29,608 nucleotides of DNA, taken from positions 1-29,608 of the forward strand of contig JBHLRS010000039.1 of NCBI GenBank assembly GCA_048882325.1, read 5' to 3'. The position numbers were made by a program, and so were the translations under genes. The notes beneath the pieces are model-generated. The model was given only the letters and a program-made list of their open reading frames with translations. It did no database searches and had not been told where the DNA came from. Positions within the stretch are counted from its first letter, which is position 1. Each line of letters opens with the position of its first letter. This stretch comes from Candidatus Thorarchaeota archaeon. Lineage in GTDB: Archaea; Asgardarchaeota; Thorarchaeia; Thorarchaeales; Thorarchaeaceae. Of the stretch, positions 6,159-25,135 are shown piece by piece.

Positions 6159-8981
6159 ATGCAATCAAAGGTCATTATCGTCCCTCATACTCATTGGGAT
6201 CGAGAATGGTATCTTCCTTTCCAGAGGTTCAGACTGAAGCTTGTCAACTTGATAGATGTGCTCCTAGACATTCTAAATCACAGTGATTATGCGTTTATGC
6301 TCGATGGTCAGACGGTCCTGCTAGAGGATTATTTGGAGATCAGACCAGAGAAAAGAGATGAGCTTCTGAAACGGATAAGAGAGGGAAAAATTGCGGTTGG
6401 ACCTTGGTATCTACTTCCTGATGAATGGTTGGTGGGAGGAGAGAGTCTTGTTCGAAACCTTGAACTCAGTCATAAACTTGCGAAGGAAATGAAGATAACA
6501 CTCATGGATATAGCTTATCTGCCCGATCAGTTTGGTCATTCATCAACAATTCCACAGCTCCTCTTTGACGTTACACACCTCAGAACCGCAGTCCTGTGGC
6601 GTGGTGTTCCACCAGAAATAGTGACTGTGCCATTCACATGGTCTTCCCATCCATCCTCTAAAGCGCATATTCGAGGAATCTATCTTCCAGAGGGGTATGG
6701 GAACTTTGCTATTCTTCCAGAAGATTATGATAGTTTCTCCGACCTCGTGAAAGATAACATTACCGAGCTTGAGCCGTTCTCGCCGGTTCCGATTTATTTG
6801 CTGATGAATGGATCAGATCATCGGTTCCCACAAGCCTACGCTATAGATTATGTGAAGAAATTGCAAAAAGAAGGTCATGACTCCTCGATTGGAACACTTC
6901 GTGATTTTGCCAATCATCTTGAACAAGCTATCTCCGAGTCTAACCTCGAAGTTCCAGCGTACTCTGGAGAGTTTCGATCACCCGCCAGAGCCCCTCTACT
7001 GCAAGACACCTATTCTGCAAGGATGTGGATCAAGATCTGGAATCAAAGAGTTGAGGATCTGCTTACAATGTGCGTGGAACCTATCAGTTCCTATCTTTGG
7101 TTCGACCTTGATAGAGCCTATCCTAGTGGTTTCATAGAAACTGCATGGAAGTGGCTTCTCAAGAATCACCCACACGACTCGATATGTGGATGCTCAATAG
7201 ATCAGACCCATGACGAAATGAAGTCTAGGTTCTCATGGGCTGAGTCTATCGGGGAGGGTGTGATTGATGATGCTTGTGGATTAATCCAGAAAGCTGGAAC
7301 ACCATCAGATTCCTCGAGTCTTTTGGTGTTCAATGCCTCAGGAACCGTGAAATGTCCCGTATACATAGAGTTCTCATATCCTAAAGAGAAGAGAGTGGGA
7401 GGTGTGAAGTTCTCAGATGGAACTATGTTTCAGGTTCAACCACTTGCATCAAGAGAGGACATCTTCCTACAAGCCACAGTTGGTCTTACTATGGCAAAGA
7501 TGGGAATGAGGTTGTTGCCAGGACGCAAGCTGATGGATTTCTACATCAATGGTGTAGAGTATTATGATGGTGATGAGCCAGGGTTACTTGAACTGAGATT
7601 CATAGCAGATAGATACCCTATAGGAGATTTCGATATGGATGAGTTCAAACGCGAGGCCCAAAAGATGATTGAGAGCAAGAGATACAAGAAGGTTCATCTT
7701 GTCGCGGCACGTCCGACTCAAAATGTCTATGCGACTGTCATCCCGTTGCAGCCATGGACATTTACGCAACTACAACCAGTCGAGGATACTCCTGAAACAG
7801 AGGATGCTTTCTTGAAAACGGACCCAAATCAGGTAGAAAACCGCTTCTATGGTATAACTTTCAATAAAGACGGATCCCTTCAACTCTTGAACAAAGAAAC
7901 AGGTACACTTTATGATCACCTACATGCTTTCGAAGACTTTGGAGACAGAGGTGATGAATACACCTTTGGTAGAGTGCGTCCCGAGAAAACAAAGAGCAAG
8001 AATGTCAAGCGCGAGGTTATTGCAAATGGACCGATATTTTCAGAGATCAGACAGACATTGACAATCGAGATCTTTGAGAGTTTGGACCCAACCAGAGTGA
8101 AGAGAATTGGAACAACGACAATACCAGTTGAATCAACTTTTCGGTTCTATCGTGACATTCCACGGGTTGATGTGAAGACGAGAGTTTTGAACTCAGCAAA
8201 AGACCATAGATTGAGAATTTGTTTTGACGTACCATATAATACGGACAAGACAATCACAGCAACCCACTTCGGCTGGGTTCTTCGTGAAAGTAATCCTGGA
8301 ACCATCCCATCAGCGGTTGAACTGGAAAAGACAAGGTCAACATACCCCGAGTTGCCATCAGGCATTCAACCTCAGAAACGGTACATCAGGGTTGAGCACA
8401 ATGATGGCAACGATGCAATAACATTGCTAAACAAAGGACTACCAGAGGTTGAACTTGTGAATGGTAAACGACTAGCAATCACCTTGATTCGTTCTGTTGG
8501 TTGGCTGTCGCGCTCTGACATCCCTGAGAGACCAATCCATGCAGGTCCACCTGAAGAAACCCCTGATGCGCAGGAATTACACAGTGAGTATGTATTTGCC
8601 TATGGTTTCGTTGCTCATTCAAAAGATATGCCAATATCAAAGAGTGTAGATCACGCAGATGCCTTCGCAGACGAACCAACCGTGATTTCGTTCAATGAAG
8701 CTAAAGCTCCAGACCTGCTTCCTAGAGCAATATTCCAAATCGACAATCCCTCTGTAAGAATCACATCAATGCGAGTGAGGAATGGCTATCTTCTAGTGAC
8801 ATTGTATAATCTTGAGAATGCTGAAATCTCTACGAAAATGCGTCTTGCAGATAGAATCGTCAGTTGTTCAGAAGTTCAAATTCACGGATCAGTAAAGACA
8901 AAGCATGATATACGTGAGGGGGTAGTTGAATTGAGTTTCAGTCCTCGCGAAATCAAGATGTGTCAGTTTCAACGTGGTTAG
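6159..8981 (+). CDS. Glycoside hydrolase family 38 alpha-mannosidase (MngB-like)
   Basis: HTHWDREWY, LDGQ, GPWYLLPDE, nucleophile motif YLPDQFGH, NGSDH, HPHDSICGCS, DRGDEY, ITLIRSVGWLSR. Start taken at ATG 6159; GTG 6150 is the alternative. Confidence 0.93.
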   Translation: MQSKVIIVPHTHWDREWYLPFQRFRLKLVNLIDVLLDILNHSDYAFMLDGQTVLLEDYLEIRPEKRDELLKRIREGKIAVGPWYLLPDEWLVGGESLVRNLELSHKLAKEMKITLMDIAYLPDQFGHSSTIPQLLFDVTHLRTAVLWRGVPPEIVTVPFTWSSHPSSKAHIRGIYLPEGYGNFAILPEDYDSFSDLVKDNITELEPFSPVPIYLLMNGSDHRFPQAYAIDYVKKLQKEGHDSSIGTLRDFANHLEQAISESNLEVPAYSGEFRSPARAPLLQDTYSARMWIKIWNQRVEDLLTMCVEPISSYLWFDLDRAYPSGFIETAWKWLLKNHPHDSICGCSIDQTHDEMKSRFSWAESIGEGVIDDACGLIQKAGTPSDSSSLLVFNASGTVKCPVYIEFSYPKEKRVGGVKFSDGTMFQVQPLASREDIFLQATVGLTMAKMGMRLLPGRKLMDFYINGVEYYDGDEPGLLELRFIADRYPIGDFDMDEFKREAQKMIESKRYKKVHLVAARPTQNVYATVIPLQPWTFTQLQPVEDTPETEDAFLKTDPNQVENRFYGITFNKDGSLQLLNKETGTLYDHLHAFEDFGDRGDEYTFGRVRPEKTKSKNVKREVIANGPIFSEIRQTLTIEIFESLDPTRVKRIGTTTIPVESTFRFYRDIPRVDVKTRVLNSAKDHRLRICFDVPYNTDKTITATHFGWVLRESNPGTIPSAVELEKTRSTYPELPSGIQPQKRYIRVEHNDGNDAITLLNKGLPEVELVNGKRLAITLIRSVGWLSRSDIPERPIHAGPPEETPDAQELHSEYVFAYGFVAHSKDMPISKSVDHADAFADEPTVISFNEAKAPDLLPRAIFQIDNPSVRITSMRVRNGYLLVTLYNLENAEISTKMRLADRIVSCSEVQIHGSVKTKHDIREGVVELSFSPREIKMCQFQRG

Positions 8982-9017: not shown

Positions 9018-10805
9018 TCAAGACCTAGACCGAAGTTTATCGATTAAACCAAAGTAATACACGATCACGGTTGCTAGTATGAGCAATTCCACTACTACAA
9101 CAAGACTCCAAGGACTAAGGGGGTGTGCATCAGGTGGTGGATGAATGGAAGTCTCTGTTGTTGTTGGACTGGTTATTGATTTAGGCGGCGAACTGAACGT
9201 AGATGAAATGGAAACATCAAGAATATCGATGATGTTTTCCAAATTTGTATTCAACCACCTAACAGGACATGAAACACTGACATGCACATCGATGAGATCA
9301 ATCGCTGTAGAAAGATGGTCGATCGTATCAAGGTCATCATTCGTTTCCATTGCGTTTCTTGCATATCCTAACTGGTTGCTAATCATGTCTCTGAGAGTGG
9401 ATGCAGTTCCTCCGAACATGTATGAGTTCGGAAGGGAGCTCACTGACGACATGCAATCATCAATGACGCTGAGTAAATCAGATCGCATAATCGTATATTC
9501 GTTAGTTAGATAGCTCGCGAATGTGTCTACTACAGTTTCTGATGGATAGTCCTGCCTATTCACAGCACCGGAAGTATATGTTCTCTCAAAGAACGTTACC
9601 GAGAAGTTTGAACTCGCGACGGTATACCAGGTGTCCGGGTCGAAACTCGTAATTTCAGTGTAATAGTAATTACTACCGATAACAGATGTCACATCACTGC
9701 CCTTCAAATCAACGGTGGCAACATAGTTGAAGAATGGTTCAGTGTGATGTAAATCCCTATAGGTTATGAATCCGCGATTTATTGCTTCTCTGACTCCTCC
9801 AGAATTATAAGTACCGACATCAGCTTCGGTAAATCGGAGAATTGCTTCTGCCATCATTACTCCTAGAGACCCTGTGCTTTGGTACGAATCGAAATATCCA
9901 AAGGCCTCATCGAGGTAGGATGAAAGTGGGGCATTCCATATATCGATCATGGACACAATGGTCTCATCAGGATCCAGTGGAGCTCCAAGTGATGGAGCAG
10001 AAAAGTCATAGCTATCGATTGTTCCAGTTGTGGTGTCAATTGTCAAATCTAATATTCCCAATCCATTAGCATATGAACCAACTGAAGGAACAACAAGAGT
10101 ATTCCCTATAGTCTGTACACTTCCTCCCGCTTTGACGAGTAGATCAATACCTGTCACACTCGAGGCTATTGAGGTGGACAAGCATCCTAGGAGAATGATA
10201 AAGTCAATTCCTTGTCCCTGTAAGTCTGTGACAGCATTATTCACTGAGGTAACCTGATCCGCGAAAGTAACTTCATCCGGAGCATACCAGAAAGATGTTG
10301 AAAGTCCTATAACTCCAATGTCATAACCTGCTATGGTTTCAATTGAGTATGGCAGTGGTTTCGGATTACCAGGCCAGTCTACGTTCGCACTCAGTAGCTC
10401 AAAGTCAGCTGCATTGATCATAGCCTTGAGCGCAGGTGTCCCTGGATCAAACTCATGGTTGTCTAATGCCATTGCATCATAGCCAATGGTATTCATCACT
10501 TCAACCATAGGGAGCCCATTGTTGATGTCATTGACTCCACCCCCACTAATAATGTCACCACAGTCAAACAAGAGAGTAGGTCTTAGCGCTCGTAATTCCT
10601 GAATCTTAGTTGAAAGGAGGGTCATTCCTCCACTACATTCAGTCCCTGTCCAGCTACTATAGAGATGACTGTGCAAATCATGAGTGTAAGCAATAGTAAT
10701 GTCGATTGTTGTGTCTTGTAATGACTCACCTACAATGATCATTGGGGAGAGTGAAGTACTGAAGACAAGCAATGTCAAGACCAATACGAACTGCCTATGA
10801 CTCAT
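9018..10805 (-). CDS. 5'-nucleotidase/metallophosphoesterase-family surface protein with C-terminal TM anchor
   Basis: THDLHSH, DCGD, DNHEFD, LLSANV; C-terminal 5'-nucleotidase domain (NSGGVR, PFFN); Ser/Thr/Pro linker, TM helix and basic tail; N-terminal signal peptide. Confidence 0.85.
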   Translation of the reverse strand: MSHRQFVLVLTLLVFSTSLSPMIIVGESLQDTTIDITIAYTHDLHSHLYSSWTGTECSGGMTLLSTKIQELRALRPTLLFDCGDIISGGGVNDINNGLPMVEVMNTIGYDAMALDNHEFDPGTPALKAMINAADFELLSANVDWPGNPKPLPYSIETIAGYDIGVIGLSTSFWYAPDEVTFADQVTSVNNAVTDLQGQGIDFIILLGCLSTSIASSVTGIDLLVKAGGSVQTIGNTLVVPSVGSYANGLGILDLTIDTTTGTIDSYDFSAPSLGAPLDPDETIVSMIDIWNAPLSSYLDEAFGYFDSYQSTGSLGVMMAEAILRFTEADVGTYNSGGVREAINRGFITYRDLHHTEPFFNYVATVDLKGSDVTSVIGSNYYYTEITSFDPDTWYTVASSNFSVTFFERTYTSGAVNRQDYPSETVVDTFASYLTNEYTIMRSDLLSVIDDCMSSVSSLPNSYMFGGTASTLRDMISNQLGYARNAMETNDDLDTIDHLSTAIDLIDVHVSVSCPVRWLNTNLENIIDILDVSISSTFSSPPKSITSPTTTETSIHPPPDAHPLSPWSLVVVVELLILATVIVYYFGLIDKLRSRS

Positions 10806-21890: not shown

Positions 21891-23987
<2,097 letters not shown>

Positions 23988-24064
23988 CTATAAAGTGCAC
24001 AGTCAAACGTTAAATGCAAGTAAAGAGTATGTCAGTTCGCCACTTGTCGTAGGAGGCAACCTGT

Positions 24065-24664
24065 TTGAGCTCTCGACCTGAAGTGTATAGAATACTCGTT
24101 GCCGGAGATGAGGAGCTTGGGTACAGTCTCTGTGCTAAAGCTCTGAACAGGGACTTAGTTGATCCCAGAACGGTAGCAAAGGAGTCCCTTCAAGATGAAT
24201 GGCCAAAGGATGAATGGATCAAACACACTACTGTGTCTCATGAAGGCCTAATCGCAACACTCGAGCTAGATTTAGAGTTGCATGGGCCGTGGGTTTGGGA
24301 ACTCTATGAAACTCTGGAACCGAGAGATTACTTTCGAAGATTTGCAGGAGTTATGTTATGCGCTGATCCAACTCGTGAAACACTACCCTCAGAGCTGTCA
24401 AACTTGATGGAAACAGTCAGTCTTCATGTTGGAAAAGCATTACCAACAATAATAGTGGTAGACCGGTCTCGTAAGTTAGCAAAGGGACAGACAGATGCGC
24501 TACGAGGCATTGCTGAAACACTTTCAGTACCGATCTTTTTCATTCGCCTGAACACAGGAGAGAACATTGACAAGGCTATCAAGCATCTTGCCACTCGAAT
24601 TTTCGTTAATGAGCATTTTGTCCATAGTCTTGAAGATGACCAACAGATTTATGATTTGGATTGA
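24065..24664 (+). CDS. Degenerate Ras/Rab-like small GTPase-fold protein (candidate pseudo-GTPase)
   Basis: Small-GTPase scaffold: YRILVAGDEELGYS, DYFRRFAGVMLCADPT, PTIIVVDRS, IAETLSVPIFFIRLNTGENIDKAIKHLA. AGGAGG SD at 24051-24056. Confidence 0.7.
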   Translation: MSSRPEVYRILVAGDEELGYSLCAKALNRDLVDPRTVAKESLQDEWPKDEWIKHTTVSHEGLIATLELDLELHGPWVWELYETLEPRDYFRRFAGVMLCADPTRETLPSELSNLMETVSLHVGKALPTIIVVDRSRKLAKGQTDALRGIAETLSVPIFFIRLNTGENIDKAIKHLATRIFVNEHFVHSLEDDQQIYDLD

Positions 24665-24694
24665 ACATGGGTCCATCACTCACGGGGGTGGGTA

Positions 24695-25135
24695 ATGATG
24701 GTAGACCATAATGAGAGAATAACAGTCCAGCATGTCTCAGATCGTGCTGATGTACAAGAGAAGATGAAAGTCTGGTTGAGTCGAGCAGCCTACAACGGAT
24801 ACAAAGTGGAATCAAACAAAGAGAACTATGCGGTTGTAAAGAGGCAATCAAATCAGAAATTCCTAGGAGTTATTGTAGCTCCAATCATGGGGTTCTTCTA
24901 TGGATTGTTCATGTATGGGTCTTTTGGAGCAATAATATGGGCCCTCACCGGTTTAATATGCGGGTTCTGTGGAGTCCCACTTGTAAAGCCTACAACCATT
25001 TCGACTTCATGGAACAATGAATCGCCATTCTATGTAAATGTCGACGCAACTGCAAATTCCAAAGGTGATTTCAAGAACGTGATTGAGGACTTGAGGTATA
25101 TTCTGTCTACAGATCCAGGAACATCTCTTCAGTGA
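24695..25135 (+). CDS. Hypothetical membrane protein with a central 2-TM hairpin
   Basis: Hydrophobic Gly-rich hairpin FLGVIVAPIMGFFYGLFMYGSFGAIIWALTGLICGFCGVPLV flanked by soluble segments; starts 30 nt after the GTPase-like gene. Confidence 0.7.
   Translation: MMVDHNERITVQHVSDRADVQEKMKVWLSRAAYNGYKVESNKENYAVVKRQSNQKFLGVIVAPIMGFFYGLFMYGSFGAIIWALTGLICGFCGVPLVKPTTISTSWNNESPFYVNVDATANSKGDFKNVIEDLRYILSTDPGTSLQ

Follow-up and report, generated by a model that had tools for sequence, protein, structure and literature searches.

What function is left to a Rab-like protein whose guanine nucleotide motifs have been replaced? This question is raised by a gene in contig JBHLRS010000039.1 (assembly GCA_048882325.1) of a Candidatus Thorarchaeota archaeon, of which positions 1 to 29,608, here called the window, were analysed over their full length of 29,608 nucleotides. 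An earlier interpretation made from the letters of the window (the sequence-only reading) had proposed that the gene product is a nucleotide-independent scaffold with eroded G motifs, possibly brought to the membrane by the protein encoded next to it. The gene, on the best reading, encodes a pseudo-GTPase specific to its lineage and derived from the expansion of Rab-like small GTPases in Thorarchaeota. Its product would probably act independently of nucleotide, much like the class i pseudo-GTPases, and bind a partner through a rewritten switch surface. Direct reading of the window agrees with the earlier description of the locus, in that the open reading frame is uninterrupted over 199 codons from a TTG start, is preceded by a strong Shine–Dalgarno sequence and is followed 30 nucleotides later by a frame with two transmembrane segments (Table 1).

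A Pfam search with the protein returned no family, and the Ras model PF00071 was absent at expectation (E) values up to 1; a sub-threshold stretch resembling PTPase (E 0.013) was treated as noise. A PF00071 search of the whole genome gave 34 matches, and this gene is not among them. Searching the Protein Data Bank (PDB) with the single sequence gave weak matches, all of them to Rab proteins (E 0.05 and above), so a profile of orthologues was needed. A search of 5.8 billion proteins found 136 relatives, the named ones mostly from Thorarchaeota and nearly all annotated as hypothetical, from which 27 orthologues were taken to form a profile (A1). With this profile the best PDB match is Rab1B (E 5.5e-8), followed by Sec4, Rab8, Rab27, Rab33 and other Rab-type chains among the best 60 of 473 matches. 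Alignment by hhalign with the canonical Rab-like paralogues of the same genome covers 165 columns with a probability of 98.5% (E 3e-15). An AlphaFold2 model computed on A1, with a predicted local distance difference test score (pLDDT) of 88 and a predicted template modelling score of 0.83, has its strands and helices in the order typical of G domains. Foldseek matches this model to KRAS, Rab1b, Rab8 and a Thorarchaeota Rab (7ezb/7ezd/7eze) at E values of about 1e-10, and VIA-align superposes it on KRAS with a Z score of 20 and a root-mean-square deviation of 2.3 Å, aligning 167 of 170 KRAS residues. Because profile search, profile–profile alignment and structure comparison agree independently, the Ras-superfamily fold proposed in the sequence-only reading is secure, with a six-stranded sheet and five helices in G-domain order and with Rab-like proteins as the nearest relatives. 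Canonical proteins align with the C-terminal half alone, and the branch leading to the family is very long.

Within this fold the nucleotide motifs have been replaced, and every string quoted in the sequence-only reading (GDEELGYS, LELHGPW, DYFRRFAGVMLCADPT, VVDRS and FIRLNTGENI) was found at the place assigned to it. At G1, GDEELGYS departs from the GxxxxGK[S/T] pattern of functional small GTPases. The Walker lysine is tyrosine in the window copy and phenylalanine in most orthologues, and one of these two aromatic residues occupies the position in nearly all of the 127 family proteins scanned. Not one of the 127 carries GK[ST]. The family-specific insert that stands in place of switch I has gaps totalling 14 residues in the hhalign alignment and 19 in the MAFFT alignment. 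It is predicted to form an extra helix at residues 34–41, where the model has pLDDT values of 88–95, and it ends in the conserved PKDEW motif; P[KE]DEW is present in 107 of the 127 proteins. For G2, hhalign sets T56 on the threonine of TIG, yet this residue is absent in distant members and switch I contains the insert of 14–19 residues.

The register of G3 differs between methods. HMMER, hhalign and MAFFT place W78-E79 on the W-D of WDxxGQ (WELYET), without the glycine and glutamine, whereas in the model, where strand β3 ends at L72, E71-x-x-G74 is favoured as the equivalent of DxxG, with proline for the catalytic glutamine (ELHGP for DTAGQ). The earlier assignment of G3 to LELHGPW (residues 70–76) is therefore favoured by the strand boundaries of the model and opposed by the three alignments; the catalytic glutamine is missing in either register. 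Following switch II, DYFRRFAGVMLCADPT occupies residues 88–103. At the positions aligned with [NT]KxD of G4 and SA[KL] of G5 the protein has DRSR (the string VVDRS spans residues 131–135) and IRL (within FIRLNTGENI, residues 159–168). NKxD and SAK are missing in all family members, including those only 25–30% identical, and the canonical G1, G4 and G5 motifs are lost in every member found. The combination of a G-domain fold with loss of the G motifs is what would be seen in a class i pseudo-GTPase, a class that neither binds nucleotide nor catalyses its hydrolysis. As for Rab membership, the window copy falls below the PF00071 gathering cut-off and lacks a C-terminal cysteine motif for prenylation.

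The word ‘eroded’ does not fit these motifs, because the replaced segments are the best-conserved parts of the family; they have been rewritten rather than eroded. Invariant columns among the 27 orthologues cluster at the former P-loop, PKDEW, ELDLELHGPWVWELY and PRDYFRRF, and E[LI]HGPW[VI]W.LY and P..[DE]YF.R[FY] are retained in members that are only 25–30% identical. The P-loop itself drifts in the wider family (GDPWMAYR, GDVWMGYR, GEPESCLR). Substitutions were analysed for ten orthologues of the genus (45 pairs), among which the synonymous rate (dS) is saturated and the nonsynonymous rate (dN) is 0.07–0.30. In the 11 of 45 pairs with finite dS, dN/dS (about 0.05–0.15) has a median of 0.067 and a maximum of 0.15. 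The proportion of nonsynonymous differences is 0.12 in the motif segments versus 0.23 elsewhere, with similar synonymous proportions. Purifying selection is thus strong, and it is strongest on the surface that contacts effectors and regulators in Rabs. This switch I, interswitch and switch II surface now carries PKDEW, ELHGPWVWELY and PRDYFRRF, with four invariant tryptophans.

One copy of the pseudo-GTPase gene is present in its genome. Across 301 genomes of the phylum, with a strong full-length match defined as E 1e-32 or better, strong matches came from 33 of the 77 genomes that belong to one GTDB family. They span six genera, with 21 in the genus of the window (25 genomes searched) and 12 in five others, and no stops lie inside them. 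The 224 genomes of other Asgard families gave no strong full-length match; the matches listed for them are weak (E 2e-9 or worse), leave the N-terminal part of the profile unmatched, mostly span the C-terminal half only and are canonical GTPases. Similarly, when 1.84 billion representatives were searched exhaustively with the profile, only about nine family clusters at 50% identity emerged, below which stand canonical Ras/Rab domains that mostly match in the C-terminal half alone. One protein matched in this search, P0129 (608 amino acids, ten matched stretches), is a tandem-repeat protein that matches a short segment and was rejected as a relative. All 34 PF00071 matches in the genome of the window keep [NT]KxD, GxxxxGK[ST] is present by pattern in 30 of them, and a 31st has the motif just upstream of the matched stretch. 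The gene examined here is the only fully degenerate Ras-family gene in this genome.

Comparison with characterized proteins relates the family to Asgard Rabs by fold and ancestry and to eukaryotic pseudo-GTPases by analogy. Thor-Rab (PDB 7EZB/7EZD/7EZE), whose motifs G1–G5 are canonical, binds both GDP and GTP-gamma-S (PMC10933270). The window protein shares its G-domain fold (Foldseek E 4e-10 to 7ezb_A), likewise has no long prenylated C-terminal tail, and retains vestiges of Rab sequence in the tryptophan before G3, YFRRF for YYRGA, LCADPT for LVYDxT and TGENI for TGxNV. Unlike Thor-Rab, the family is without the P-loop lysine, NKxD and SAK, carries 14–19 inserted residues for switch I and is not recognized by the Pfam Ras model. 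The SMTZ1-45 metagenome-assembled genome (MAG), the source of the Thor-Rab crystal structure, also has an orthologue of the pseudo-GTPase (P0038). The class i pseudo-GTPases include CENP-M, p190RhoGAP pG1 and pG2, and the pseudo-GTPase domain of AAGAB (Stiegler and Boggon 2020, as cited in PMC12490416 and PMC10211241). By analogy with these eukaryotic proteins, the family has a G-domain fold whose nucleotide motifs are gone and whose sequence is retained by selection, presumably for protein contacts. It differs from them in its independent origin from Asgard Rab-like proteins, in being a stand-alone single-domain prokaryotic protein, and in that its loss of nucleotide is read from sequence. 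No sequence link to the CENP-M, p190RhoGAP or AAGAB families was found; the matches listed in the PDB profile search (the best 60 of 473) and in the structure searches are solely canonical Ras- and Rab-type chains, which does not by itself exclude others. Also, the conserved surface of the window protein is the switch region, while AAGAB works through the opposite face. A literature search for pseudo-GTPases in archaea or Asgard archaea returned no description of the family, although its coverage was incomplete and novelty is not thereby proven. These results are best explained by a family of pseudo-GTPases, a kind of protein characterized mainly in eukaryotes.

The gene appears to be transcribed from a promoter of its own, as judged from a conserved upstream box. 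The element TCAAAYGTTAAATG lies upstream of the orthologue in six genus loci compared, roughly 50–60 nucleotides from the gene, and it is retained both where dtxR is directly upstream and where, as in the window, ligA is inserted. GGAGG is kept at equal spacing in most orthologous loci. Boxes of the form TTAG-N6-CTAA, the DtxR-type operator seen before feoA, were found in none of 16 upstream regions of the pseudo-GTPase gene. The usual order in the genus is larA (divergent), feoA, a feoB G-domain gene, a feoB permease gene, an MJ0565-like gene, a feoC-like gene and dtxR, and then the pseudo-GTPase gene on the same strand; here and in genome G087, ligA lies between the last two. Outside the genus the block is a different one: tldD-pmbA is upstream on the same strand in three genera, and then come genes for an M32 carboxypeptidase, a transporter of the VIT family and an enzyme of the PALP type. 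On the downstream side, what precedes two TFIIB genes varies between genomes, and this slot holds nothing, a 117- or 200-residue protein, a PLD-like, Imm5-like, DUF998 or PQQ-like surface protein, or the gene for the two-transmembrane protein. No conserved operon partner travels with the gene throughout the loci compared.

The two-transmembrane neighbour has hydrophobic segments at about residues 55–75 and 78–98. In its model (pLDDT 78) the N- and C-terminal halves make one β-α-β-β / β-β-α domain split by the membrane hairpin, and they are predicted to form a single soluble domain on one side of the membrane. No PDB structure matched at E 0.001 or better; weak Foldseek rows resembling KA1, a kinase-associated, lipid-binding domain (E 7e-3, TM-scores 0.43–0.66), are a lead only. 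The neighbour has relatives in only five other clusters among the 5.8 billion proteins, and of the 28 species genomes of the genus, 2 were found to carry its gene. This gene directly adjoins the orthologue in related contigs (L038/L039) and is separated from it by one opposite-strand DUF998 gene in others (L040, L043). It is absent downstream of the closest orthologues (84–86% identity), from most orthologous loci and from all loci examined outside the genus. In one genome (G275) the feo-dtxR genes are followed by a PQQ-like surface-protein gene and the two-transmembrane gene (L044, G275:C30:1-7259) without the pseudo-GTPase gene, which is on contig C38 in a different context, a natural uncoupling of the two. 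Co-folding of the two proteins gave a score of 0.00, below the mark, which counts neither for nor against binding. The adjacency fits shared local synteny in a variable slot, and because no partner gene travels throughout, the pairing is a feature of the slot and not of the family.

Table 1 Features of the pseudo-GTPase locus in window coordinates
Feature	Position	Strand	Basis
ligA, inserted between dtxR and the pseudo-GTPase gene	21891-23948	-	
Perfect palindrome TATAGGT-N7-ACCTATA	23972-23992		
Promoter-like box TCAAACGTTAAATG, probable B recognition element (BRE)/TATA box	24003..24016	+	About 50–60 nt 5′ of the start codon
Shine–Dalgarno sequence AGGAGG	24051..24056	+	8 nt upstream of the TTG start, read directly
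Pseudo-GTPase gene (best reading), Ras/Rab fold, 199 amino acids	24065..24664	+	Open reading frame, profile searches, predicted structure
G1 (P-loop) equivalent GDEELGYS, residues 14–21	24104..24127	+	hhalign columns on GDGxVGKT of canonical paralogues
Family-specific insert after helix 1, ending in PKDEW, in place of switch I	24143..24217	+	hhalign, MAFFT, model
Signature over β3 and switch II, ELDLELHGPWVWELY...PRDYFRRF	24263..24343	+	(Nearly) invariant in 27 orthologues
G4 equivalent VVDRSR instead of NKxD	24455..24472	+	hhalign, MAFFT
G5 equivalent FIRLNTGENI instead of (E)TSAKTGxNV	24539..24568	+	HMMER, hhalign
146-residue protein with a two-helix membrane hairpin, occupant of the variable slot	24695..25135	+	Open reading frame, hydrophobic segments, model, synteny

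These results suggest how the protein might work. With the P-loop lysine, NKxD and SAK replaced and 14–19 residues inserted in switch I, it most likely does not bind guanine nucleotide in the canonical manner and would not switch. It is acidic (isoelectric point 5.0), has no detectable hydrophobic segment in its 199 residues and is predicted to be soluble, and it could be a module that binds protein constitutively, whether as an adaptor or as a decoy. The fixed surface rich in tryptophan, histidine and tyrosine at the former switches would contact a putative protein partner, and expression may proceed from the promoter-like box independently of any conserved operon partner. The scaffold role put forward in the sequence-only reading therefore stands as the best reading of fold, motif loss and selection, whereas its nucleotide independence keeps the standing of a prediction. 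Several points weigh against the proposal as a whole. Loss of nucleotide binding is argued from sequence and from what is generally known of G domains; most close orthologues retain P-loop residues G14 and G19 as well as the serine of GK[S/T]; E71-x-x-G74 is a possible conservative DxxG in one register; and no conserved neighbour that would point to a partner was found in the loci compared. Furthermore, AAGAB, a solved class i pseudo-GTPase, binds its partner away from the switches (PMC12490416), so contact through the switch surface is not a given.

The retained P-loop residues would also suit a protein that holds some other ligand (a non-canonical nucleotide, a metal or a small molecule) in the former nucleotide pocket and acts as a sensor instead of a ligand-free scaffold. 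Besides G14, G19 and the serine at position 21, the invariant E71 and G74 may take the place of DxxG, provided that the model indicates the right register, and D15, E16, E17, C23 and H73, which are invariant in the genus, make up an acidic, histidine and cysteine set that could coordinate a cation. However, the lack of P-loop conservation across the wider family makes a conserved ligand site there unlikely. Established knowledge of G domains also indicates that two acidic P-loop residues, together with loss of the lysine, NKxD and SAK, disfavour phosphate or guanine binding, and we consider a pocket ligand unlikely overall. Another possibility is that the gene is a Rab-like paralogue without function and in the course of decay, as might be supposed of a protein that has lost all its nucleotide motifs and that no Pfam model recognizes. 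Yet every genome has an uninterrupted frame, dN/dS stands at about 0.07 while dS is saturated, and the protein is conserved down to 25–30% identity over six genera, most of all in the replaced motifs. Decay is excluded because it is contradicted by these selection data, and the chance we leave to it is negligible.

Two further explanations draw on neighbouring genes. An accessory role in iron homeostasis, such as that of a regulator or chaperone acting with Feo, DtxR or a VIT-family transporter, is prompted by most loci of the genus, where the gene directly follows feoA-feoB(G domain)-feoB(permease)-MJ0565-feoC-dtxR on the same strand, and by three other genera, where a VIT-family (iron/manganese transporter) gene is one or two genes away. 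We nonetheless judge this role improbable: the gene has its own promoter-like box and none of the boxes typical of feoA, ligA separates it from dtxR in the window and in G087, and two genomes (G103 and G275) carry it away from feo. In addition, all the genomes belong to one family, whose gene order perhaps reflects inheritance only, and the protein resembles Rab and not the FeoB G domain. The other explanation, advanced in the sequence-only reading, is that the two-transmembrane protein recruits the pseudo-GTPase to the membrane and that the two form a functional pair. The genes are adjacent on the same strand in the window, the arrangement recurs downstream of an orthologue with at most one intervening gene, and the predicted soluble domain of the neighbour faces one side of the membrane. 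Against this, only 2 of the genus's 28 species genomes were found to have the neighbour's gene, compared with a strong pseudo-GTPase match in 21 of 25 genus genomes. The closest orthologous loci lack it, as do all those outside the genus; it stands by feo-dtxR in G275 with the pseudo-GTPase on another contig, and it occupies a slot whose content differs by genome. Synteny with it recurs in few related contigs only, and pairing or membrane recruitment, being unsupported, is highly improbable.

The preferred reading, a pseudo-GTPase that would bind a partner without nucleotide, can be narrowed to a more specific joint claim. The protein could be a nucleotide-free mimic of one fixed Rab conformation that occupies or organizes effectors or regulators (roadblock, longin or TRAPP-like) of the canonical Rab-like switches of Thorarchaeota; this is a speculative suggestion, possible but not probable. 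In a less likely variant, the acidic former pocket with its histidine and cysteine would sense metal, which, if true, would explain the recurrent placement of the gene beside iron-transport genes.

Asgard archaea attract interest as a source of evidence on how eukaryotic membrane traffic began, and their many small GTPases are usually counted as switches. One conserved lineage of these GTPases, at the least, seems to have dropped its nucleotide while keeping, and rewriting, the effector-binding face, a pattern most familiar from eukaryotic pseudo-GTPases like CENP-M, p190RhoGAP and AAGAB. If the Rab-mimic suggestion is true, regulation by pseudo-GTPases, characterized mainly in eukaryotes, would already be present in the Asgard small-GTPase network. 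The binding partner could expose a piece of that network that is invisible to sequence annotation. Censuses of ‘Rab-like’ genes that use Pfam miss the family entirely. Since the protein is small, soluble by prediction and composed of a single domain, the claim is directly testable.

A second set of unusual Ras-family genes resides in the genome of the window (G000). Three of its 34 PF00071 matches, two of them in tandem (C6:67281-67823 and C6:68652-69194) and one elsewhere (C2:70718-71245), have a damaged P-loop (GEDGVGIN, with lysine changed to isoleucine; GEDGVGKE) and are without DxxG. They form the ends of proteins of 420–450 amino acids with long acidic N-terminal parts, and probably represent a second, partly degenerate pseudo-GTPase family. 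Like the window protein they are Ras-family domains with P-loop damage. In contrast to it, they retain NKxD as well as a G5-like motif, reach scores that exceed the Pfam Ras cut-off and have N-terminal extensions of 200–300 residues, whereas the window protein is a bare domain that has lost all motifs; the A1 profile does not single the three out as relatives. The pseudo-GTPase gene of another locus (L027, genus g13) is preceded, at a distance of 1.3 kb and on the same strand, by an intact gene of the Ras family (PF00071, E 1.6e-42); the two genes are at 9872-10429 (-) and 7977-8549 (-), with a PRC-barrel gene in between.

The ends of the protein vary among orthologues. The window copy has no cysteine near its C terminus, in agreement with the sequence-only reading. 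A sub-clade (P0038-P0055 and P0103-P0119, for example L033:7623-8174, and including the SMTZ1-45 MAG) ends in EEICGC[TAS] right after the last helix, a CxC-like end that recalls Rab prenylation motifs; the window copy has instead an acidic C-terminal extension of 18 residues, common only to its closest relatives. At the other end, two loci (L023:8001 and L024:8001) have a CTG codon at the conserved start position after a normal GGAGG or GGGGG site, which suggests that translation begins at CTG or, in the case of L023, at another codon nine bases further upstream.

Other observations concern the surrounding genes. The ligA product is a bacterial-type NAD-dependent DNA ligase with adenylation, OB, HhH and BRCT domains that is 73% identical to the G087 copy. 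The gene is missing from that spot in other loci of the genus, and it is probably an acquired gene in this archaeon. In the most divergent family members, tldD-pmbA lies upstream of the pseudo-GTPase gene on the same strand (L031, L032, L035, L004, L025, L026 and L029; genera g9, g14 and g16). The interval is free of genes in g14 and g16; in g9 it contains one to three small ones, which in two of the three g9 loci include a gene for a C_GCAxxG_C_C redox protein. The site next to tldD-pmbA may be the ancestral location or operon. Finally, the perfect palindrome between the divergent ligA and pseudo-GTPase genes may represent two back-to-back TATA-like boxes or a regulator site brought by the ligA insertion.

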